From positions 64,001 through 128,000 of the forward strand of contig JAWOEX010000010.1 in assembly GCA_046482545.1 (NCBI GenBank): 64,000 nt of DNA, in the 5' to 3' direction. Under the pieces are notes generated by a model. The model did no database searches. It was given only the letters and a program-made list of their open reading frames with translations, and was not told where the DNA came from. Positions 19,268 through 46,097 of this stretch are shown one piece after another. The stretch's first letter is position 1; the number at the start of each line of letters is the position of its first letter. Origin of the DNA: Candidatus Thorarchaeota archaeon (GTDB lineage Archaea > Asgardarchaeota > Thorarchaeia > Thorarchaeales > Thorarchaeaceae). Both the position numbers and the translations under genes were made by a program.

Positions 19268-20236
19268 CTACATTCTAACATAGTCTACACGATGAGTGGC
19301 ACCGCAGTTCGGGCATTGGTATTGGTCCGGTCCGACCCAGTCTATCTCCTGCCAGGATAATGGAGCTCCACAGTGACTGCATTTATCACTGATTACTGGC
19401 TTCACGAAAACCGTACCACTTGATTGACTCCCAGAAGTAACCTGCATTTCTTCTTCTGTCTCAGTTGCTCTAGCCATGGGTGAAGTCTGCTCGTAGTCTT
19501 GAATATCATATTGCGAGAGTGGATGACGTGCCTTAATGTAGTCGTAAGGACGAACCAACCAGTCAAGATGGTCGTCAGGCACTGTGTCCCATGCCCGTGC
19601 TTGCCAGACTCTCAAAAGGTGGTCCTGTCGCGGGACTTTACCCCGAATCTTGAAGTCGCCTGTCTTGCACTCAATTTTCAATTCGCCTCTTTTGGATTCA
19701 AAGGTGTGAACCCAGTGCATCGGAAAGATGAATAACTTATTCTTACGAGAATCTCGCTGATATAGGCGGTAATTAGTTAAGATAAACGAATCTGGATAGT
19801 ACGTGAAGATTTCTTCTCCCTTAATCCATGCATAAACTCGATAGAAGTGCTGAGAAAACTTCCTGTGGTAGCCTATAGTCGTCCAATGATTGTATGGATG
19901 TCGTTCATGCACAAAAGGTACTGATGACACCTCGCATAGTTTCCGTTGGTCACCCACATTCAAATCATCGAATTCCCTCATGCTCAGCGCAGAGCGTATC
20001 TCCTCTCTTCTGGGCATATTTCCCAATACATTGACAATACCATTAATGACCTTGAACATAGCCTTGCGTGATGTCAGCTTGTACTCCTTGATTATGTGAA
20101 GCGGAAGGCTGACACTGGTTCGAGAACCATGGTCATATTGGATTAGGCGATAATTGGTTAGGATGTATTCATCGGCTTGTGCGAGTTTTCGCTCGCTTTC
20201 AATTGGGATATATACAAGGGAAGAGCTCGGAGTCAA
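19268..20236 (-). CDS. tandem PH/GRAM-like domain protein with C-terminal zinc ribbon
   Basis: Duplicated ILTNYRL...P...G.(M/V)PR unit; CSHCG...CPNCG. Confidence 0.6.
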   Translation of the reverse strand: MTPSSSLVYIPIESERKLAQADEYILTNYRLIQYDHGSRTSVSLPLHIIKEYKLTSRKAMFKVINGIVNVLGNMPRREEIRSALSMREFDDLNVGDQRKLCEVSSVPFVHERHPYNHWTTIGYHRKFSQHFYRVYAWIKGEEIFTYYPDSFILTNYRLYQRDSRKNKLFIFPMHWVHTFESKRGELKIECKTGDFKIRGKVPRQDHLLRVWQARAWDTVPDDHLDWLVRPYDYIKARHPLSQYDIQDYEQTSPMARATETEEEMQVTSGSQSSGTVFVKPVISDKCSHCGAPLSWQEIDWVGPDQYQCPNCGATHRVDYVRM

Positions 20237-20617: not shown

Positions 20618-21091
20618 TTATTTTGAAGGGGAAGGGAATTTCTTCCCTTTTGCGATGTGTGGCTGAAGACCCAGCTTCTTGAAAATTCTGTCCAGAATGT
20701 CCGCTGTAGATTGATTTGTTGTTTGCCGAAACAGGTGGGTACCACAGTTCCTTTTGCAATCAGAGGCACCGAACCCCGGTGGGCCTTGCTCGAAGTCATC
20801 GCTGCTCTTTATGCTCTGGGCTAGATCACATTCCATTGTTTCATCTGTCCTAGCCCATACTGCGCTTTCAATTTCTACATCCATGTCTAACAGGTAATCG
20901 ATGTGCCAATGAATTGTCTTTGTATCAGAGAAGTGACGGCCCAGTCTGTTTTCTAAACTTGTGGAGCCTATCCCCAATGCAGACCCAACATAGACATAGG
21001 CCCCCTTCTCTAGAGTTAGTTTTCCTAGTCCTCCTGTTGTGAGAGTCAGTTGCTTACTGATTTGGATTATAAGTGCGTATACGCCTTTCAT
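20618..21091 (-). CDS. GIY-YIG nuclease family protein (DUF123)
   Basis: KGVYAL...YVYVGSA...RLGRH...HWHIDYL...GFGASDC..C.THL. Confidence 0.9.
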   Translation of the reverse strand: MKGVYALIIQISKQLTLTTGGLGKLTLEKGAYVYVGSALGIGSTSLENRLGRHFSDTKTIHWHIDYLLDMDVEIESAVWARTDETMECDLAQSIKSSDDFEQGPPGFGASDCKRNCGTHLFRQTTNQSTADILDRIFKKLGLQPHIAKGKKFPSPSK

Positions 21092-21128: not shown

Positions 21129-22172
21129 CTATCTTCTATTCTTCATAGATGGCTTTGCAACCTTCTTGATGAATCGCCAGGCTTGCCTACTGTTTAGCAC
21201 CCCTGCTTCCAGCTCTCTTAGGATTCTATAGACTGATGGACCAACCATACCCCAACCCATGTTATGGAGCTTCCTGAGGAAATTACAACCGAATGTCTCT
21301 CGCCTGGGTGAAAACCCGTGGTGTTTCAGTATATCCTTCATTCGGTATTTCGTCAAGCTCAGAAGTGCCGGTAAGTGGATTTGGAGCATCCCATCTTGTT
21401 CCTGTAGGGCCTGCCTCCCTGTTGGAAGGCTTTGACCCGTCACTACAATATTGTGCCCATCCGCTTTGGCTTCTTCAATGACCTTCGCCATGAGCGCTGT
21501 ATGACATTCACCGCAGGGATGAATCCGCCCTTGTCTTGATTTTTCCATAATACCCTCAATCATGCTTGGGACTTCTACAATGCGGCAAGTAGCATCAAGC
21601 TTTTCACAGACCTCTACTATGGCACGTATGTCTGGGGGTGCCAAGACTTGAGGATGCGGAGATATCGTATAGGCTACGCACTCCATTTCGGCATCTCGAA
21701 GAATAACTAGGGCCGCAGAGCTATCCACCCCTCCTGAATAGGCAACTGCTGCAAGTCCCTTATTGTTGTCTGGCTGGTAATCATGCAGTGACTGAGCCGG
21801 AAACGCAATCTCAAGTGCGATGAGAGCCTCAAGCCAGGGAAATAGGTTATTATCACTAAATTTGCTTGTAGTCATAAGTTCGTGCAGCCTGTGCTTGCTG
21901 GCTTCAAGTCTTACCCGTCTAAGCGCCAGCTCGTCCGCTCCATGAAATGCTACATCCTTTCCTATTTGTCGTGCGATTTTAGCCGCTAGCCTACCCCCAG
22001 GGCCTATACATTGGCTTTTCTCAGCTCTGTCAGGAACGATTGCATGAAGTTGGCCTTCTGGATGCTCAAGAACTTTCCGTACTTGAGGGTTTTCTCCTCG
22101 GTCTAGGTTCAAGCTCTTTCTTGTATCTTCTAGCAGTCGCGCCATTTCTACAGCATCCATCCAATAAGCCAC
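21129..22172 (-). CDS. PP-loop ATPase with N-terminal KH-like domain (COG1365-like)
   Basis: PDRAEKS..IGPGG, AYSGGVDSS, HPCGECH. Confidence 0.8.
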   Translation of the reverse strand: MAYWMDAVEMARLLEDTRKSLNLDRGENPQVRKVLEHPEGQLHAIVPDRAEKSQCIGPGGRLAAKIARQIGKDVAFHGADELALRRVRLEASKHRLHELMTTSKFSDNNLFPWLEALIALEIAFPAQSLHDYQPDNNKGLAAVAYSGGVDSSAALVILRDAEMECVAYTISPHPQVLAPPDIRAIVEVCEKLDATCRIVEVPSMIEGIMEKSRQGRIHPCGECHTALMAKVIEEAKADGHNIVVTGQSLPTGRQALQEQDGMLQIHLPALLSLTKYRMKDILKHHGFSPRRETFGCNFLRKLHNMGWGMVGPSVYRILRELEAGVLNSRQAWRFIKKVAKPSMKNRR

Positions 22173-22232: not shown

Positions 22233-23180
22233 ATGCCTTCCAAGATACTTCCTAGCGTCTACCGCATAGAAGGAGAATATGCTGGAGAGTACGGTTATTT
22301 ATCTAGCTATCTGTATATAGCTGATGATGAATGTCTGGTGATTGATCCCCGAACAGCCGGTAGTCCTGGTAAAAAGATACTCAAAGCAATCAAAACCCTT
22401 GGTTTGAAAGCTTCCCGAGATGTCATAGGTATCCTGTGTACCCATGCTCACCCGGATCATGTTGGCGGGGTGAAGATGCTGAAGGAAGAGACCGGTGCTC
22501 CCGTGATTATACATGCAGATGCCGTACCTCTGCTCAGAGAGCCCGGTCTTTTCACAAAGTCCCGCTTAAGGCTAAACCTCTCTGAGCGAATAGCGATGAA
22601 GTTCGAGAGAGGTCCCTTACGAGTTAACTATGATGGCCAAGAAGCAGACAGAATCCTCAATGACAGAGACTTGGTGCATATAGGCAATAGTACACTTCGG
22701 ACGATACTTACTGCTGGCCATTCTGCAGGCCATTGTGCATTCTATGATTCTGATCGCAAGATTCTATTCTGCGGAGACGAAATCACCAACTTTCCAAATA
22801 GCCCTAGAAAATTCTACGTTGACCTGTCGGGAAGCATGATAGCAAAACGATGCGCTCTCGAAAAGATAAAGAAGATGGAAATTGACTATCTCCTTCCTGC
22901 TCATGATATACCTCATCTTTTCGGAGACGTGAGGACGCAGATTGTAGAGTCACTCAGTGGAGTGATAGCTTTCCAAGACTCAGTTCTTGAGCACGTATGC
23001 ATACGGGGAGAAGCAGATATTGAGCAACTCGTATTCGATATTACGAAAGCCAACTCGATACCATATCCCAAGGAGATGAAGGCGCTTCTGCCAACAACAA
23101 TCCTCGTAGCGCTTAGAAGTCTTCAGAAGGCCGGATTGGTCTTTGAGGAAGAAGGCATTTGGATGTCAGAGAATTGCTGA
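22233..23180 (+). CDS. MBL-fold metallo-hydrolase
   Basis: THAHPDHVGG, GHSAGH, GD, PAH. Confidence 0.88.
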   Translation: MPSKILPSVYRIEGEYAGEYGYLSSYLYIADDECLVIDPRTAGSPGKKILKAIKTLGLKASRDVIGILCTHAHPDHVGGVKMLKEETGAPVIIHADAVPLLREPGLFTKSRLRLNLSERIAMKFERGPLRVNYDGQEADRILNDRDLVHIGNSTLRTILTAGHSAGHCAFYDSDRKILFCGDEITNFPNSPRKFYVDLSGSMIAKRCALEKIKKMEIDYLLPAHDIPHLFGDVRTQIVESLSGVIAFQDSVLEHVCIRGEADIEQLVFDITKANSIPYPKEMKALLPTTILVALRSLQKAGLVFEEEGIWMSENC

Positions 23181-23269: not shown

Positions 23270-24670
23270 TTGACAAAGAGATTTACTCCCTCCGGGGTAA
23301 TGCCCGCACTTGTTACACCATTCACTAGACATGGTGATATACATGAAGAGGGCCTCAAGGAGGTAATAGATTACACTATTGAGAAAGGGTGTACGGGGGT
23401 GGTTCCTGCAGGAACCACCGGTGAATTTGTCTACATGCGAACTGAAGAGAGAAAGAAGTTACTCAAACTGACAGTAGAACATGTGGATGGCCGTGTCCCT
23501 GTGGTAGCTGGAACTGGACAGAACAGCACCCGCGCCACAATCAGCCTTACAAAGTACGCTGCTGATTTGGGCTGTGATGCAGCTCTGGTTGTTTCACCTT
23601 TCTTCTTGCGCCCAGATGATAAAGGGTACTACCAACATTATGCAGATGTAGCAAGAGAAGGGAATCTTCCTGTAATCCTGTATAATATCCCTCAATGTAC
23701 CCTTGGGACCCTACAATCCAACGTCGTTCAGGATTTGGCGGATCTCGACAATATCGTTGGAATCAAGGATAGTGGAGGGGATATCGGTCATACAATGGAA
23801 CTAATACAGAAGGTTAGTGACAGAATCCCTGTCCTGATAGGACATGATGAGTGCTTCCTCTCAGCAGTATCTGCTGGAGCTAGCGCTGCTATTATGGCTT
23901 CAGCAAATATTATGCCACATATCTGGCTGGAAATAATGGAGTGTGTCCAGAACGGAAACTTCGAGAAAGCACGAAAAATGCAACTGGATGCTCAGACGCT
24001 TGCCAGAATAGTCACAAGAAATGGGGGTGCTCCACCTGTGAAGGCTGCCCTCAAAATGATGGGTATTGAAGCGGGATATTCTCGAATGCCACTTGATTCT
24101 GGAGGAACACTTACACGGGAACTGAAGGAAGAAATCAGATTGGAGCTTGAAAAGCTTGGCCTGATAGAAACTCCAACTAGGTCACCACTTCAGGAAAAGC
24201 CTGACGTACGGAAATTAGCTACCGACCTTGGCTTTGAGAATCCCGATTTTGAAGGGTGTAGATTCGCTACAGCGGCGAATGATACAGTCTCGGTGACTGT
24301 TGTTACTGGAAAGAAGAAATCAGCAATTGGAGATTTCTTTGTAAGGCTACTCACCACACCCAAACAGGGCTATGAAGGGCTTACCGTTATTCTAGAGCCA
24401 AATTTGGCGGTAAAACCGAGCTCATTAATGGTTCCTGCCAGAGGAATACAATCCATGCGTCAAGCTTCTCTTTTCTATGGCCCCGTTCAATCCGGTGCTG
24501 CTAAGGCGATAGCAGCCACAGTGGAATCTGGTGCTATAAGCGAAGAGAGAATCGACGACACGTTGATGATTCTAATGCTAGATGTGAACTTGGACTCGCG
24601 TGACCGCAGGAAGATAGTCACAGCCACGGAAGAAGTAGTCGCTGAAGCAATGAGTTCTATTTGGAGCTGA
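23270..24670 (+). CDS. DapA-family class I aldolase fused to a Fae-like (formaldehyde-activating enzyme) domain, copy 1
   Basis: GTTGE, LYNIP, GIKDS; C-terminal LTVILEPNLAVKPSSLMVP...FYGPVQSGAAKAIA is Fae-like. Confidence 0.85.
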   Translation: MTKRFTPSGVMPALVTPFTRHGDIHEEGLKEVIDYTIEKGCTGVVPAGTTGEFVYMRTEERKKLLKLTVEHVDGRVPVVAGTGQNSTRATISLTKYAADLGCDAALVVSPFFLRPDDKGYYQHYADVAREGNLPVILYNIPQCTLGTLQSNVVQDLADLDNIVGIKDSGGDIGHTMELIQKVSDRIPVLIGHDECFLSAVSAGASAAIMASANIMPHIWLEIMECVQNGNFEKARKMQLDAQTLARIVTRNGGAPPVKAALKMMGIEAGYSRMPLDSGGTLTRELKEEIRLELEKLGLIETPTRSPLQEKPDVRKLATDLGFENPDFEGCRFATAANDTVSVTVVTGKKKSAIGDFFVRLLTTPKQGYEGLTVILEPNLAVKPSSLMVPARGIQSMRQASLFYGPVQSGAAKAIAATVESGAISEERIDDTLMILMLDVNLDSRDRRKIVTATEEVVAEAMSSIWS

Positions 24671-24674
24671 GAAA

Positions 24675-26150
24675 ATGAGTGATGATTTTAAGTTTCAAGG
24701 TGTCTATCCGGCCCTCGTTACACCTTTTGACGAGGGCGGCGTGAACGCATCGCAGTACAAGGGTTTGATTGAGCATTTGATTGGAAGGGGCGCGACTGGA
24801 ATTGTTCCTTGCGGTACAACCGGTGAGTTTACCAGTATGACTTTTGATGAGCGTTTGCAAGCCATCCGAATCGCATGTGAGACAGCTGCGGGACGCGTAC
24901 CCGTCATGGCTGGTACAGGTGCCCCATACACGGCAGATGCGGTCAAACTCACTCGACGAGCAGCTGAATTGGGAGCGGATGCTGCTCTAGTGGTTACTCC
25001 ATATTTCCTTAAGCCCTCCACAAAGGAAATCTACGAACACTACACGCGAGTAGCTGAGGCCAGTGACCTCCCCATCTTTCTGTACAATATTCCGCAAGTA
25101 ACAGGAATCAAGCTGGACTGGAAACTGGTCGATGGCTTACAAGAAATAGATGGTATTGCTGGCATGAAAGATTCTAGTGGCGATCTGGTTAACCTTACAA
25201 CCATTCTATTGCGACGCCCTCATGATTTTCAGGTTGTTGTAGGCCATGATGAAGTGGCATTTCCTGCTCTTGCGGCGGGTTGTGATGGAGCCATACTCAT
25301 GAGTGCAAATGTCTTTCCTAATCGATACATTCAGATGCAAAGTGCTCTGTCAAGAGGGAATCTCAAAGATGCGAAGATTGTGCAAAGGACGATTCAAAAG
25401 ACTGTACGCCTCCTTGTCAATAAGGGGGGTGCAATCGCAGTCAAAACTGCATTGAATATGATGGGCATAAATGTTGGAGATGCTCGGAAACCTCTTCTCG
25501 AAGGTGATTTGTTTAGTTTTGAGGATCTTGATGAGCTCAGGACATGCTTAGAGGATTTGCAGCTGATTCCAAGAGGACCTGTGACATTCAAGATGGGCAA
25601 TCGGGAAATAGTTGCCGAACAATATCCAAAGGCTGCAGGAATTGTTGCTGATGTTGTTGATGACTTGACACTCCTGCATGGAGAATCTCTGTGCGGTGGT
25701 GGTCATGAGGTCGCCCATGTTGATTTGGTGATGGGTATCAAGACAGGTCCAATGCAACAGGCTTTAGAAACAGCAGATAAGATAGTAAAGGGTTTCCATC
25801 AGTCAAACATTATCAAAAATCTTCAGCCAACAACGGTCTTTGCGCCTACAGTGAATATCACTGATGAAGCCCACAAAGAAATGGTATATGATGTAGCCGA
25901 GAAAGCAGTCGCTGATGCGGTTACCAGAACTGTGACAGATCAAATCATACCCGAGGAACTTGTTCCTGATCTCGTCATTGCGGTTAACGCCTTTGTTCAC
26001 CCTGCTGCTAATAACAAGCGTAGGGTGCACATCAATAATTTCCGCGCTGTTCGGCATGCTCTTAGACGCGCTATTGAAGGACGACCTGATATTTCTACAG
26101 TCATAGAACAGAAGAACTCATCTCGGCATCCTTTTGCCTATGGTCCATAA
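24675..26150 (+). CDS. DapA-family class I aldolase fused to a Fae domain, copy 2
   Basis: GTTGE, LYNIP, GMKDS; C-terminal GESLCGGGHEVAHVDLVMG...AVADAV...FVHPAA...RHPF is Fae. Confidence 0.88.
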   Translation: MSDDFKFQGVYPALVTPFDEGGVNASQYKGLIEHLIGRGATGIVPCGTTGEFTSMTFDERLQAIRIACETAAGRVPVMAGTGAPYTADAVKLTRRAAELGADAALVVTPYFLKPSTKEIYEHYTRVAEASDLPIFLYNIPQVTGIKLDWKLVDGLQEIDGIAGMKDSSGDLVNLTTILLRRPHDFQVVVGHDEVAFPALAAGCDGAILMSANVFPNRYIQMQSALSRGNLKDAKIVQRTIQKTVRLLVNKGGAIAVKTALNMMGINVGDARKPLLEGDLFSFEDLDELRTCLEDLQLIPRGPVTFKMGNREIVAEQYPKAAGIVADVVDDLTLLHGESLCGGGHEVAHVDLVMGIKTGPMQQALETADKIVKGFHQSNIIKNLQPTTVFAPTVNITDEAHKEMVYDVAEKAVADAVTRTVTDQIIPEELVPDLVIAVNAFVHPAANNKRRVHINNFRAVRHALRRAIEGRPDISTVIEQKNSSRHPFAYGP

Positions 26151-26760: not shown

Positions 26761-27900
26761 ATGATGGTTAACGAATCTAGGATTTTAGGCCTTCTAAAAG
26801 AACTAGTAGCGACTAACAGCGAAAATCCGCCCGGTAATGAACGCGGAGTGGCCGAAGTGCTTCGCGATTACCTATCACAGTATGATATTAAGTCAAAAGA
26901 GGTTGGAGATAATGAGGATCGCCCCAATCTTATTTTCTCAACCCATGACGGTGATTTTGGAAATCTCCTAATGCACGGTCACATGGATACCGTACCTGTT
27001 GGCTCTAAGGATAATTGGTCTTACGACCCTTTTGGTGCTAAAGTATCATCAGGGCGTCTCTATGGCCGGGGTGCATGCGATATGAAAGGTCCATTAGCCG
27101 CCTTGGCTGAGACCATGATTCAATACAAAAAGGAGAATCATGAGATGCCATTGGTCATGCTTGCAACTTCGGATGAAGAAGCAGGCTTGCGAGGTGCCCA
27201 ACAAGTATCAGACAGTGGTATACTGGAAGGTATTAAGTGGGGGGTATGTGCCGAACCTACCAGCTTGGGTATTCTCTTAGGCGGAAAAGGCACGTTCTGG
27301 GTGAAACTACGGACAACAGGAAAATCCGCGCACGGTTCGAGACCCCAAGAAGGTATCAATGCTATCTCCCTGTGCATAGAAGCCCTAGAAGCAATCACCG
27401 GTGAGCAATTTGAATATGATGAGTCATTGTTGGGAGCGCCTACTGTTAACATAGGAGTGATTGAAGGTGGTGCGAAAATCAATGTGGTACCTGAGTACTG
27501 TGAAGCCCAAATAGATATGCGCACTGTTGAAGGTCAGACTACTGAATACATCGCCGAATCCATGAAGAGCCGACTGGAAAGCGCGGGTTTGGACGAGTAT
27601 GTCCAAATAGATATCATAGATGCACATCCACCAGTACTGACACCAAAGGATGCGGAGATAGTAATAGCTGCGAAAGAGGCGATAACAGAAATCACTGGAA
27701 CCACCCCCGAATTGGCCACAGCCACCTACGGAACAGACTGTTCAGTTCTTCAGCCCGACGTGGGGATTACTAACGTTATCTGTGGGCCTGGATCAATCGA
27801 GCAAGCGCATCAGCCTGATGAGTATATCGAAATCAAGGAACTTCTGACTTCAGTTGGGGTTTATCTCCAGATCGCTCGCTACTTTGCCAATGTTTACTGA
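26761..27900 (+). CDS. M20 metallopeptidase (ArgE/DapE family)
   Basis: HGHMDTVP, GRGACDMKG, DEE, EPT, AHQPDE. Confidence 0.92.
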   Translation: MMVNESRILGLLKELVATNSENPPGNERGVAEVLRDYLSQYDIKSKEVGDNEDRPNLIFSTHDGDFGNLLMHGHMDTVPVGSKDNWSYDPFGAKVSSGRLYGRGACDMKGPLAALAETMIQYKKENHEMPLVMLATSDEEAGLRGAQQVSDSGILEGIKWGVCAEPTSLGILLGGKGTFWVKLRTTGKSAHGSRPQEGINAISLCIEALEAITGEQFEYDESLLGAPTVNIGVIEGGAKINVVPEYCEAQIDMRTVEGQTTEYIAESMKSRLESAGLDEYVQIDIIDAHPPVLTPKDAEIVIAAKEAITEITGTTPELATATYGTDCSVLQPDVGITNVICGPGSIEQAHQPDEYIEIKELLTSVGVYLQIARYFANVY

Positions 27901-27921: not shown

Positions 27922-28707
27922 TTAACTCTCGGATGACGCTCTTACAGCAATAAGAGCTGCAATAGCTCCGCCACCAATACCATTCCCAATGTTGACTACA
28001 GCCAAGCCGGGAGCACAGGACTGAAGCATGGAGGCCAAAGCGGTTTCGCCCCTCCCACCATGTCCGTATCCGATAGGCACAGGTACGCCAATAACTGGGA
28101 TATCAACCAGTGAAGCCACTACTGTGGGTAGAGCCCCTTCCATTCCTGCAAATACAACTATTGCATGAACTTGTTCTTCTCTTATTTTCTGGAGCGGTTC
28201 GATAAGTCGGTGAATGCCTGAGACGCCAACATCACGGAATCTCAATACACCCACCCCCATGGTTTCTGCAACAGCTTGGGCTTCTTCTGCAAAGAATTCA
28301 TCGGAAGTCCCTGCTGTGATAATCGCAATCATGCCGCCTGTTCTTTTTGGTATCCATCTGGGATGATGAACTAACAGAGTCATGTGGTTTCCACCCCCTC
28401 TGATATCAAATTCAAAATCCGCGAGATGATTTTCAAGGTACTCTACTTGTTTTTCGTTGACACGGGTGGCAAGTACAAAATCCTTCACTTCGAGCATGGC
28501 TCGGAGAATCTGCATCAGTTGTTCGCTTGTCTTCGTTTCAGCCATAACAACTTCTGGAATGCCGCTCCTGTGTTCACGCCCAGGATCAATTACAGCTAAA
28601 TCTCCAACTTTCTGCAATTCTAGTTTTTGCAATCTCTTTTGAGCTTCATCAACATTGATTTGGCCTGAAGCTAGGGCTTCCAAAACCTCTCGAATTTCTT
28701 GCATCAC
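27922..28707 (-). CDS. larB: nickel-pincer cofactor biosynthesis protein LarB
   Basis: GIPEVV, AGTSD, DVGVSGIHRL, AGMEGALP, GVPVPIGYG, LQSCAPG. Confidence 0.9.
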   Translation of the reverse strand: MMQEIREVLEALASGQINVDEAQKRLQKLELQKVGDLAVIDPGREHRSGIPEVVMAETKTSEQLMQILRAMLEVKDFVLATRVNEKQVEYLENHLADFEFDIRGGGNHMTLLVHHPRWIPKRTGGMIAIITAGTSDEFFAEEAQAVAETMGVGVLRFRDVGVSGIHRLIEPLQKIREEQVHAIVVFAGMEGALPTVVASLVDIPVIGVPVPIGYGHGGRGETALASMLQSCAPGLAVVNIGNGIGGGAIAALIAVRASSES

Positions 28708-44948: not shown

Positions 44949-46097
44949 ATGACCTCACGAATGACTCATCTTCACTGTCCAAACTGTGGAAAGAAATACA
45001 AGGCTGAACCCGGAATTTCATACTGCTCATGCGGCTCTCCCATTTTTGCACAATATGATATCAAAGCTGTTTCGGAGGATATTGCAAACAATGATTTCCC
45101 CGGAAGGGAGAATTCGATGTGGAGATATGCCAGTCTGTTACCTGTTGACTCGCGAAGAGCTGTCACATTGGGTGAAGGTTGGACTCCTTTACTTTCATCA
45201 AAACGTATCCATGAATACATGGGCCTAGAATCGGTCTATATCAAGCAAGAATCGCAAAACCCTACGTTGAGCTTCAAAGATCGTGGACTCAGTGCCGCTA
45301 TCTCCAAACACACTCAACTTCGGAGCAACCATTTTGTAATTCCATCAGCAGGTAATGCAGCCATATCCATGTCAGCTTATGCTGCAGCTGCTGGGGCTCT
45401 AGCGACAGTTTACATGCCTGAAAATACACATGAGTCATTTTTCCAAGCTTGTTCCCAATATGGAACAGAAGTCATTGCTGTGAAAGGAACTATCGCAGAT
45501 TGCGGTACAGCGGTACAGAAAAATGAGGGGGTTTGGACCGATATCTCAACAACAAAAGAGCCATTTCGGGTGGAAGGTAAGAAAACACTAGGTTTCGAAA
45601 TATGTGAACAGATGAACTGGTCACTTCCTGAAGTGATTATCTGTCCTACCGGCGGAGGAACCGCACTTCTCGGTATATGGAAAGGAATACAGGAGCTTGA
45701 GAATGTGGGACTCATCGATGGGACCCGGCCCCGTATGTTTGCAGCGCAGAGTGATGGTTGTGCGCCCGTCGTCCGAGCGTTCAAAGCCGGATCCAAGACA
45801 ATTGAGCCTTGGGAAGATAGTGAGACAAAGGCCTTAGGTCTGCGTGTTCCAAAACCATTCGCAGATGAATTGATTCTAGATATACTGCGAGAGTCAGAAG
45901 GAGGAGCAGTAGCAGTAGATGAAAAATCGATTGGAAAAACTAGACGATTAGTAGCAGAAGACGAGGGTATTGATATGTGCCCCGAAGCTGCGGTGGCTAT
46001 CGCTGGAGCAAAGAAACTTGTTGAACAGAGAAACATAGACAAGAATGAAGATGTCGTGGTTCTGAACACCGGTTCAGGGGTCAGATATCCAAGCTAG
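44949..46097 (+). CDS. thrC: threonine synthase
   Basis: Zn ribbon, TLGEGWTPL, NPTLSFKDRG, SAGNA, EGKKT, PTGGG. Confidence 0.88.
   Translation: MTSRMTHLHCPNCGKKYKAEPGISYCSCGSPIFAQYDIKAVSEDIANNDFPGRENSMWRYASLLPVDSRRAVTLGEGWTPLLSSKRIHEYMGLESVYIKQESQNPTLSFKDRGLSAAISKHTQLRSNHFVIPSAGNAAISMSAYAAAAGALATVYMPENTHESFFQACSQYGTEVIAVKGTIADCGTAVQKNEGVWTDISTTKEPFRVEGKKTLGFEICEQMNWSLPEVIICPTGGGTALLGIWKGIQELENVGLIDGTRPRMFAAQSDGCAPVVRAFKAGSKTIEPWEDSETKALGLRVPKPFADELILDILRESEGGAVAVDEKSIGKTRRLVAEDEGIDMCPEAAVAIAGAKKLVEQRNIDKNEDVVVLNTGSGVRYPS

Follow-up and report, generated by a model that had tools for sequence, protein, structure and literature searches.

Adjacent aldolase-Fae fusion genes with complementary Fae motifs in a Thorarchaeota genome: a possible enzyme for one-carbon transfer between H4MPT and a keto acid

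The window analysed here is a stretch of 64,000 nt from Candidatus Thorarchaeota archaeon (GCA_046482545.1, contig JAWOEX010000010.1, positions 64,001-128,000 of the forward strand). Two adjacent open reading frames on the plus strand, gene A (23270-24670; 466 aa, TTG start) and gene B (24675-26150; 491 aa, ATG start), each encode a class I aldolase domain followed by a formaldehyde-activating enzyme (Fae) domain, in agreement with the first-pass annotation of this DNA, which had described a pair of aldolase-Fae fusions and called for an HMM domain search. In that search, A matched the Pfam profiles DHDPS (E-value 6.5e-79, aa 7-288) and Fae (2.1e-26, aa 336-461, profile positions 9-134 of 159), and B matched the same two profiles (3.7e-74 and 1.5e-32, the latter over aa 336-487, profile positions 2-158). 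The two proteins are 34% identical over their full length, and both single-chain models are confident, with a high pTM (pLDDT 91.8 and pTM 0.82 for A; 91.4 and 0.89 for B). At the junction of the two genes (24662-24677, plus strand), the TGA stop codon of A and the ATG of B are separated by a spacer of 4 nt, and a GGAG sequence lies 9-13 nt 5' of this ATG; co-transcription and coupled translation of A and B are likely.

A gene for an MBL-fold protein is located directly 5' of A (22233-23180), but was rejected as a functional partner, since about 5.6 kb separate it from the pair in the Thorarchaeota loci L005 and L009 and it is absent from locus L042, where an unrelated gene occupies the position. 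The M20 peptidase and LarB-like genes 3' of the pair were rejected as well, their conservation being confined to Thorarchaeota. Gene neighborhoods of the aldolase-Fae family in Bathyarchaeia and Thorarchaeota provide no direct metabolic clue.

The aldolase domain of A (23288-24133, plus strand) contains GTTGEF at residues 48-53, YNIPQCT starting at the catalytic Tyr138, the Schiff-base Lys166 within GIKDSGG, and GHDE at 191-194; the corresponding elements of B (24690-25502, plus strand) are GTTGEF at 47-52, YNIPQVT starting at Tyr137, Lys165 within GMKDSSG, and GHDE at 190-193. Both proteins show the profile match, catalytic Lys and Tyr and carboxylate-binding GxxGE motif of the PF00701 superfamily, and have the equivalents of Lys161 and Tyr133 in a (beta/alpha)8 class I aldolase fold. 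In a Foldseek comparison, the aldolase domain of B superposed on solved DHDPS chains with TM scores of 0.94-0.95 on the target chain and an rmsd of about 1.6 Å. The catalytic Tyr is conserved in 100% of the sequences in each of clades A, B and C (C comprising the single-gene forms, see below), and the Lys in 100, 96 and 100%, respectively. In the pair of lineage L132, the Lys is lost in both partners and the Tyr in B as well, while the split Fae motifs are kept, indicating that the aldolase chemistry is not indispensable everywhere.

The motifs YNIPQCT and YNIPQVT place Cys143 of A and Val142 of B at the position of DHDPS Arg138, so that the loss of this arginine after YNxP, reported in the initial annotation, is borne out, as is every other motif quoted there. 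In DHDPS, Arg138 holds aspartate semialdehyde by its carboxylate. The position is occupied by Cys in 97% of A, Val in 93% of B and Cys in 50% of C sequences, compared with Arg in 67% of 123 non-fused relatives. At the position of Tyr107, a residue of the DHDPS catalytic triad that reaches across the tight dimer, Phe112 is found in this A and Phe111 in this B; among orthologues, Tyr is present in 90% of A, and Phe in 99% of B.

The Fae-like domain of A (24275-24652, plus strand) retains GHE.L, LEPNL.VKP (EPNLAVKP at 376-383), MRQAS and YGP.Q (YGPVQ at 403-407), but reads DTVSVTV instead of the EVAHIDL of Fae and LDVNL instead of FVHP, and stops about 30 residues early, without the C-terminal arm. 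The Fae domain of B (25680-26135, plus strand) shows the reverse: GE, EVAHVDL (345-351), GP, N.FVHP (FVHP at 440-443, with His442), NNF and the arm with RHPFAYGP (His485) are kept, whereas PNL. is removed by a 4-residue deletion, and MRQAS and the GP of GP.Q are replaced. Both domains exceed the 27-bit cut-off of Pfam Fae (93.2 bits for A and 113.3 for B); with TIGR03126, B scores 121.8 bits, above the cut-off of 118.05, and A scores 85 bits, below it, over profile positions 11-136 only.

Comparison of 118 A, 107 B and 116 single-gene C sequences, including about 110 non-redundant orthologues each of A and B, yielded two complementary sets of Fae columns. Those shared by B and C and lost in A are G5, E6, A16, H17, D19, L20, G27, P28, N112, F114, H116, P117, N128, N129, R134, R138, E142, R144 and the arm to H159 and P160; those shared by A and C and lost in B are G43, H44, E45, L47, L51, E52, P53, N54, L55, V57, K58, P59, M72, R73, Q74, A75, S76, G80, P81 and K88. 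The His of EVAH.DL is His348 in B (99% of B orthologues) and is replaced by Ser341 in A (Ser in 81% of A orthologues); we take it to be the counterpart of the catalytic His22 of solved Fae. Conversely, the PNL..KP loop and GP.Q segment are 99-100% conserved in A, whereas the PNL. deletion is found in 100% of B orthologues and other residues stand in place of GP; 89% of these orthologues keep the Gln of GP.Q, which is Glu in the present B. The complementary split is far beyond chance and old. Judged from these sequences, it is the pattern expected of a Fae site to which an A and a B subunit both contribute. Work by Acharya and co-workers from 2005 reportedly shows which Fae subunit contributes His22 and which Gln88 to the site. 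Solved Fae is a pentamer, and an odd-numbered ring cannot alternate A and B, which counts against the heteromer model.

In the phylogenetic tree, A, B and the single-gene C forms constitute three clades, with SH-aLRT support of 99 for A and 99 for B. The C forms, found in Bathyarchaeia and Lokiarchaeia, keep all motifs of both sets. The complementary degeneration described in the first-pass annotation is conserved across five lineages and is not seen in the single-gene relatives, and according to the tree it arose once, in a single evolutionary event. Outside the window, six B genes with upstream DNA available were examined, and each follows an A gene; they represent five lineages (Thorarchaeota, L042, L132, L133 and Korarchaeota L134); in L005, L009, L042, L132, L133 and L134, the two genes overlap by 4 bp or are separated by 5-18 nt. 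Conversely, the full-length single-gene loci classified (about 25) are all lone and match at least four of the five Fae motif patterns, with 22 matching all five. No description of a DHDPS-Fae fusion was found in the literature searched.

A and B contain the only Fae and the only DHDPS domains of the genome that harbors the window. This genome encodes the H4MPT enzyme Mch; the organism has the H4MPT one-carbon pathway. Fae matches were detected in 78 of the 85 genomes of its family, nearly always exactly two and weak, with no canonical Fae. In the set of Asgard genomes checked for Mch, the aldolase-Fae fusion is confined to those that encode it. No Hps is present in the window genome, where the best match to it reaches only 24 bits. 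Replacement of serine hydroxymethyltransferase (SHMT) by the pair was considered and rejected, SHMT being present in this genome.

Genomic context outside the window drew attention to an orphan protein of 427 aa, denoted X, whose copy in the window genome lies at G000:C2:57549-58814 and, as in Thorarchaeota generally, is not adjacent to the A/B pair. X is extremely conserved and enzyme-like, and produced no match in Pfam, NCBIfam, a PDB profile search or two Atlas searches. It adjoins the C-type fusion at 23 of the 28 loci in the genome collection and at six further Lokiarchaeia loci, in one of which the contig ends within the fusion gene. Within Lokiarchaeia, X co-varies with the fusion: among genomes at least 95% complete, a second Fae match is present in none of the 20 that lack X, as opposed to about 40 of the 43 that encode it. 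None of 11 bacterial and archaeal genomes that carry an ordinary Fae encodes X. In three Mch-less Asgard genomes, from families without a Fae match by family tally (0/31 and 0/22), X is the first gene of an operon that continues with an aminotransferase, homoserine dehydrogenase and aldehyde:ferredoxin oxidoreductase (AOR). Because both sets of X partners, the aldolase-Fae fusion on the one hand and the aminotransferase, homoserine dehydrogenase and AOR on the other, can make or remove 4-hydroxy-2-oxobutanoate (HOB), these contexts point to HOB as a shared metabolite and lend indirect support to this compound, which the initial annotation had named as an example substrate. A supply of homoserine specifically for threonine synthase fits poorly: the window genome has three ThrC-like genes above the cut-off but no ThrB, and a complete Bathyarchaeota chromosome with the fusion and X encodes no ThrC-like gene above 72 bits.

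Taken together, the explanation that we favor, with about even confidence, is that A and B form a heteromeric bifunctional enzyme in which a split Fae site and a pyruvate-type aldolase mediate one-carbon transfer between H4MPT and a keto acid; that the two proteins associate, which substrate they use, in which direction the flux runs and that intermediates are channelled are elements that we infer. Each subunit carries a Schiff-base (class I) pyruvate-type aldolase barrel, and the Fae active site would lie between neighboring subunits, with B contributing the acid catalyst His348, the FVHP and NNF segments and the C-terminal arm, and A contributing the PNL..KP loop and the MRQAS/GP.Q segment, such that catalytic interfaces would form only where 'face 1' of B meets 'face 2' of A. 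The Fae part would interconvert methylene-H4MPT with H4MPT and formaldehyde, and the aldolase part would use or release the formaldehyde at a 2-oxo acid, most likely in the reaction pyruvate + formaldehyde <-> HOB. The net result would be hydroxymethyl transfer between H4MPT and pyruvate, with PanB-like chemistry in a Fae-Hps-like architecture, and X probably acts on this C4 compound, HOB. The formation of HOB from pyruvate and formaldehyde is a documented promiscuous reaction of aldolases, and HOB has been called non-native (PMC8879981); no description of the proposed one-carbon transfer between H4MPT and a keto acid was found in the literature searched. Besides the pentameric state of solved Fae, this reading has against it the lost aldolase residues of the L132 pair, the separation of X from the pair in Thorarchaeota, the single origin of the motif split, the GHDE motif discussed below and the uninformative gene neighborhoods in Bathyarchaeia and Thorarchaeota. 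More tentatively, the aldolase-Fae family might be a natural enzyme dedicated to this reaction, a methylene-H4MPT:pyruvate hydroxymethyltransferase or HOB lyase, that together with X forms an undescribed C1-C3 junction at the HOB/homoserine node.

Several other explanations were weighed against this one. That A and B are genuine 4-hydroxy-tetrahydrodipicolinate synthases, as annotated, appears highly improbable, even though their TIGR00674 (DapA) scores of 233.7 and 231.2 bits exceed the cut-off of 206.15, all named database matches are called DapA apart from two labelled 'hypothetical protein', and the fold superposes closely on solved DHDPS. Beyond the family-wide absence of Arg138, the window genome (98.9% complete) yielded no match to the DapB_C, Semialdhyde_dhC (Asd-type) or Homoserine_dh domains, whereas control genomes were positive in 11 of 14 cases for DapB_C and in 14 of 14 for each of the other two; Asd was also absent from all five genomes tested that carry the single-gene fusion. 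Combined with the status of the pair as the sole DHDPS and Fae domains of an Mch-encoding genome, these observations led us to reject DapA function. A hydroxymethyltransferase acting on another 2-oxo acid, namely an H4MPT-dependent PanB analogue that converts 2-oxoisovalerate to ketopantoate or uses 2-oxobutanoate, would share the chemistry of the favored model but is improbable: a good PanB (394 bits) is already encoded in this genome, where the pair is thus excluded as a PanB replacement, the homoserine dehydrogenase in the alternative X operon suggests an unbranched C4 skeleton, and enzymes of the DHDPS family are typically pyruvate-specific.

Rather unlikely, in our judgment, is an aldolase that acts on a larger 2-keto-3-deoxy acid of the sugar-acid type, with the Fae domain binding another aldehyde or a pterin, or serving in regulation. 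The family GHDE motif resembles GxDE of the sialic acid lyase subfamily, which is presumably sugar-binding, and could indicate a larger aldehyde than formaldehyde as substrate; moreover, in one clade (L048), a UxaA/GarD-type sugar-acid dehydratase gene takes the place of X, divergently oriented beside the fusion. However, this neighbor is limited to that clade, the Fae residues retained, the catalytic His among them, are the ones that canonical Fae conserves, and the fusion was found only in Mch-bearing genomes among the Asgard tested, the three Mch-less genomes with X coming from families without Fae. Finally, the pair could be a plain formaldehyde-activating enzyme for detoxification or for feeding H4MPT, with the aldolase barrel as an oligomerization scaffold and no coupled chemistry. 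We consider this unlikely, although the pair is the sole Fae of the genome, the L132 pair retains the split Fae motifs with both aldolase domains devoid of the Schiff-base Lys, and a published survey of Bathyarchaeia interprets 'fae' in this sense (PMC10321748). Against it stand the 96-100% conservation of the aldolase Lys, Tyr, GTTGE and GHDE across about 340 sequences from all three clades, the tight linkage and co-variation with the enzyme-like X, and the fact that an ordinary Fae does without a scaffold.

The wrong name DapA is attached to hundreds of protein clusters in MAGs of Thorarchaeota, Lokiarchaeia and Bathyarchaeia, with the consequence that metabolic reconstructions credit these archaea with a step of the lysine pathway that they cannot perform, or simply count 'fae'. 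If the proposed reaction is real, the aldolase-Fae family would provide an unrecognized link between the H4MPT one-carbon pathway and pyruvate/C4 amino-acid metabolism in abundant sediment archaea, via HOB, a metabolite so far regarded as non-native. Such a reaction would be nature's equivalent of the HOB aldolase step in the engineered homoserine cycle and directly relevant to engineered formaldehyde assimilation. With its Fae site probably divided between two paralogues, the A/B pair would also offer a clear-cut natural case of an active site shared between subunits, and X, being tightly linked and extremely conserved, is a defined target for function discovery.

Among known systems, Fae-Hps (NF009833) of methanogens and many other archaea resembles the A/B pair in that an aldolase-type barrel producing or consuming formaldehyde is fused to Fae in H4MPT-using archaea, and is carried by other Asgard families where Thorarchaeota have the pair. 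In Fae-Hps, however, Hps has the OMP-decarboxylase fold and is C-terminal to Fae, whereas here a class I aldolase of the DHDPS family is N-terminal and two paralogues share the Fae site between them; NF009833 scores A and B at 70.7 and 99.3 bits, in the Fae part only, against a cut-off of 274. The Fae of Methylobacterium extorquens (1Y5Y/1Y60; PF08714) aligns with B end to end (E-value 1.2e-20), with EVAH.DL, F.H and the C-terminal HPFA kept, and with A over residues 16-131, with PNL..KP and GP.Q kept; this Fae is a stand-alone homopentamer with both faces of the site in each chain, in contrast to the aldolase-fused A and B, which, as known from their sequences, each have one face. With DHDPS/DapA of the DHDPS/NAL superfamily (PF00701; 2EHH, 1DHP), A and B share the fold, the Schiff-base Lys, the Tyr133 equivalent and GTTGE, but the family differs in lacking Arg138, in the replacement of Tyr107 by Phe in 99% of B sequences, in GHDE instead of GDD and KDS instead of KEA, in a GG insertion near residue 277, in the additional C-terminal Fae domain, and, for the window genome, in the absence of lysine-pathway partners. 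PanB and, in the synthetic homoserine cycle, the promiscuous HOB aldolase step perform the same net chemistry as that proposed here, the transfer of a hydroxymethyl group from a methylene-pterin or formaldehyde to C3 of a 2-oxo acid (PMC8879981). PanB, also present in the window genome, has no homology to A or B, and HOB aldolase activity is known only as a side reaction catalyzed by other aldolases rather than as that of a dedicated natural enzyme, the role that the aldolase-Fae family might fill.

Genes A (positions 23270-24670, 466-aa ORF) and B (24675-26150, 491-aa ORF) are co-directional on the plus strand and separated by a 4-nt spacer, with a GGAG located close 5' of the B ATG. In Pfam searches, both products matched DHDPS and then Fae (E = 6.5e-79 and 2.1e-26 for A; 3.7e-74 and 1.5e-32 for B), and the two proteins share 34% identity over their full length. 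The profile matches bear out the proposal of the first-pass annotation that both C-terminal parts are Fae domains, and the motifs that it named for A and B were all found in the sequences. AlphaFold models generated from family alignments are confident for both A (pLDDT 91.8, pTM 0.82) and B (pLDDT 91.4, pTM 0.89), and the predicted aldolase half superposes onto solved DHDPS chains with a TM of 0.94-0.95. No solved chain spanning both the aldolase and the Fae halves was found, the query-normalised TM being only 0.57.

The pair is preceded by minus-strand genes for a DUF123 protein (20618-21091) and a PP-loop ATPase-like protein (21129-22172), and followed by an M20 peptidase gene (26761-27900, plus strand) and a LarB-like AIR-carboxylase-family gene (27922-28707, minus strand). 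Other Thorarchaeota likewise have the latter two genes downstream of the pair, an arrangement confined to this group. A 322-aa protein without a family match is encoded at 19268-20236 on the minus strand; its C-terminus shows a weak match to a Cas12f-type zinc ribbon (E = 9.5e-4, below the cut-off).

The Fae parts of 118 A proteins, 107 B proteins and 116 C proteins (single-gene fusions of relatives) were aligned to canonical Asgard Fae, the column numbers of which are used here (M. extorquens numbering is about +5). The alignment shows two non-overlapping sets of near-invariant columns. Set 1 (G5 E6; A16 H17 D19 L20; G27 P28; N112 F114 H116 P117; N128 N129; R134; R138; E142 R144; and the C-terminal arm to H159 P160) is present in B and C but absent in A, where the domain ends early, being truncated beyond column 142. 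Set 2 (G43 H44 E45 L47; L51 E52 P53 N54 L55 V57 K58 P59; M72 R73 Q74 A75 S76; G80 P81; K88) is present in A and C but absent in B, with the PNL. motif deleted in 100% of the B sequences. The complementary loss within paired aldolase-Fae fusions that had been claimed for this locus is fully confirmed. The substituted positions are conserved too (D114 and D116 in A; K51, H74, D88 and R92 in B), which indicates that the 'dead' Fae faces are under selective constraint and may serve as a contact within a heteromer.

In 2005, Acharya et al. reportedly found that Fae binds methylene-H4MPT in a cleft of adjacent subunits; His22 is said to be the acid catalyst, Gln88 to flip upon binding, and the C-terminal arm to become ordered. 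His22 and the arm lie within set 1 and the GP.Q segment within set 2, a distribution that fits a composite Fae site with face 1 contributed by B and face 2 by A.

A quick IQ-TREE analysis of 37 full-length proteins yielded three groups, A, B and C (SH-aLRT 99, 99 and 89, respectively). All six B genes outside the window with available upstream DNA are preceded by a same-strand A, with junctions ranging from a 4-bp overlap to a gap of 5-18 nt. These loci come from Thorarchaeota (L005 and L009), an unplaced lineage (L042), GCA_003560875.1 (L132:4544-7449, on PWJQ01000035.1), a cluster labelled Anaerolineae (L133) and Korarchaeota (L134, RLG49791/RLG49790). Each of the about 25 classified full-length C loci, from Bathyarchaeia, Promethearchaeota, Borrarchaeum and one Undinarchaeales MAG, is lone within about 4 kb; none has fewer than four of the five Fae motifs, and 22 match all five patterns. 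Taken together, the three groups, the pairing rule and the lone, intact C genes indicate that the split arose once after duplication and was then kept as a unit; it is a single event, with no repeated convergence.

The nearest homologues of A and B belong to Thorarchaeota and Promethearchaeia MAGs, and fragments of the fusion were detected in Sifarchaeum and Odinarchaeota MAGs. Among 1.8 billion representatives, the full-length fusion accounts for only about 13 clusters (50% identity). No description of a DHDPS-Fae fusion was found in the literature searched; a large survey of Bathyarchaeia counts 'fae' plainly and proposes formaldehyde detoxification (PMC10321748). A and B are the sole Fae and the sole DHDPS matches in the window genome (3.05 Mb, 98.9% complete). 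Within the family of this genome, Fae matches occur in 78 of 85 genomes, nearly always exactly two and weak (E about 1e-30), and canonical Fae in none of the 85. In other Asgard families, canonical Fae (about 1e-70) is encoded by ORFs of some 400-460 aa, which would suit Fae-Hps.

Named homologues of A and B are nearly all labelled '4-hydroxy-tetrahydrodipicolinate synthase', but this DapA annotation is wrong. At the position of E. coli Arg138, A has Cys and B has Val, and the Arg is missing family-wide; in 123 non-fused relatives, this position is mostly Arg. DapB_C, an Asd-type domain and homoserine dehydrogenase were all missing from the window genome, the same searches being positive in 11/14, 14/14 and 14/14 control genomes, respectively. 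The Asd-type domain is also missing in 29 of 40 genomes of the Thorarchaeota family that are at least 90% complete, and in 5/5 Bathyarchaeia and Lokiarchaeia genomes with the single-gene fusion. Without aspartate semialdehyde and DapB, the DapA reaction would have neither a substrate nor a following step, and this function was ruled out. The window genome encodes the H4MPT-pathway enzyme Mch (328 bits), PanB and SHMT; Hps was not found. It also carries three ThrC-like (TIGR00260) genes above the cut-off, with ThrB, homoserine dehydrogenase and Asd all missing: window 45117-46079 (plus strand), G000:C2:55047-56024 (minus strand; fused to a C-terminal PadR winged helix) and G000:C32:4926-5918 (plus strand).

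All-against-all comparison of the genes neighbouring the fusion revealed the 427-aa orphan protein X (e.g., L047:5501-6784, minus strand; L064:1798-3081, plus strand), which adjoins C in 23 of 28 genome-collection loci, being divergent upstream in Bathyarchaeia, co-directional and 0-30 nt upstream in Lokiarchaeia, and downstream in L076. In six more Lokiarchaeia loci, X precedes the fusion, which in G219 is interrupted by the end of the contig. X sequences from Bathyarchaeia, Lokiarchaeia and Thorarchaeota are 59-87% identical, with about 130 invariant columns that include TLDTKGT, FKISV..G.DNPY, EHH and AKHE, and yielded no significant match in Pfam, NCBIfam, PDB or Atlas. X is carried by 17/17 Thorarchaeota genomes at least 95% complete, and by none of 11 bacterial and archaeal genomes with ordinary Fae (negative control). 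In the genus of the window genome, X is unlinked to the A/B pair; it is encoded at G000:C2:57549-58814 (L138:9544-10821; plus strand), with an ECF S-component gene and, about 1.4 kb away, the ThrC-PadR fusion gene as neighbours. Among Lokiarchaeia genomes at least 95% complete, a second Fae match occurs in 0/20 lacking X versus about 40/43 with X, a comparison of related genomes, made without a formal statistic, in which the pattern varies inside two genera; the exceptions are a contig end (G219) and two genomes whose sole Fae is the fusion (G221 and G269). Directly 5' of the A/B pair in L042 (21-971, plus strand) lies the gene for a 316-aa protein that has no family match and shows weak similarity to X in the C-terminal half of the latter (pairwise E = 4e-5 at 22% identity).

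Two Asgard families, f8 and f11, lack Fae matches (0/31 and 0/22 genomes), and Mch is absent in 4/4 tested X-bearing genomes of these families. In the three of these four that were examined, L139 (G067:C1), L140 (G011:C43) and L141 (G075:C39), X is the first gene of a conserved operon and is followed by genes for a class I/II aminotransferase, homoserine dehydrogenase and aldehyde:ferredoxin oxidoreductase (AOR), with a second aminotransferase in two of the three and peptide-type ABC transporter genes nearby in two. This set could interconvert a 4-hydroxy-2-oxo acid, homoserine, aspartate semialdehyde and aspartate, which suggests an aspartate-semialdehyde/homoserine route running on ferredoxin instead of Asd. 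Thus, in the examined genomes that use H4MPT, X is partnered with aldolase-Fae, and in three without Mch with the aminotransferase/homoserine dehydrogenase/AOR set. The simplest metabolite common to both contexts would be 4-hydroxy-2-oxobutanoate (HOB). In one Bathyarchaeia-like clade, the usual position of X, divergent to C, is occupied by a UxaA/GarD-type dehydratase (GD_AH second and C domains; L048:5430-6910, minus strand) and a small upstream ORF; a sugar-acid dehydratase of this type would fit HOB, which is a 2-keto-3-deoxy C4 acid.

The best-supported reading of these sequences is that A and B associate as a heteromeric aldolase-Fae enzyme in which each A-B interface forms one composite Fae site, as the first-pass annotation had suggested in outline. 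Such an enzyme would exchange a C1 unit, with H4MPT on one side and a 2-oxo acid on the other (most likely pyruvate/HOB), and X would act together with it. In the aldolase-Fae context, HOB would be split into, or built from, pyruvate and methylene-H4MPT; in the aminotransferase/AOR context, it would be converted to aspartate by transamination and oxidation, or formed from it by the opposite route. In a review, HOB is described as a non-native metabolite, made only by promiscuous aldolases in the synthetic homoserine cycle (PMC8879981).

The aldolase residues are conserved across the fusion family: the Tyr133 equivalent in 100% of clades A, B and C, the Lys161 equivalent in 100%, 96% and 100%, respectively, and GTTGE in 94-100%. 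In the L132 pair, the aldolase Lys is gone from both partners (one Ala, the other Leu), GTTGE reads GAEGE or SDVGE, and the Tyr of B is replaced by His, with the split Fae motifs kept; a RibD_C gene lies directly 5' of this pair. In DHDPS dimers, the Tyr107 equivalent extends into the site of the partner. Phe occupies this position in 99% of the B sequences, and Tyr in 90% of the A sequences, a second A/B asymmetry that would favour the site of B in a putative A-B dimer; A of the window has Phe as well. Features that set the fusion family apart from ordinary DHDPS are GTTGEF, YNIPQ(C/V)T, KDS, an inserted GG around residue 277, and a GHDE motif where ordinary DHDPS has GDD.
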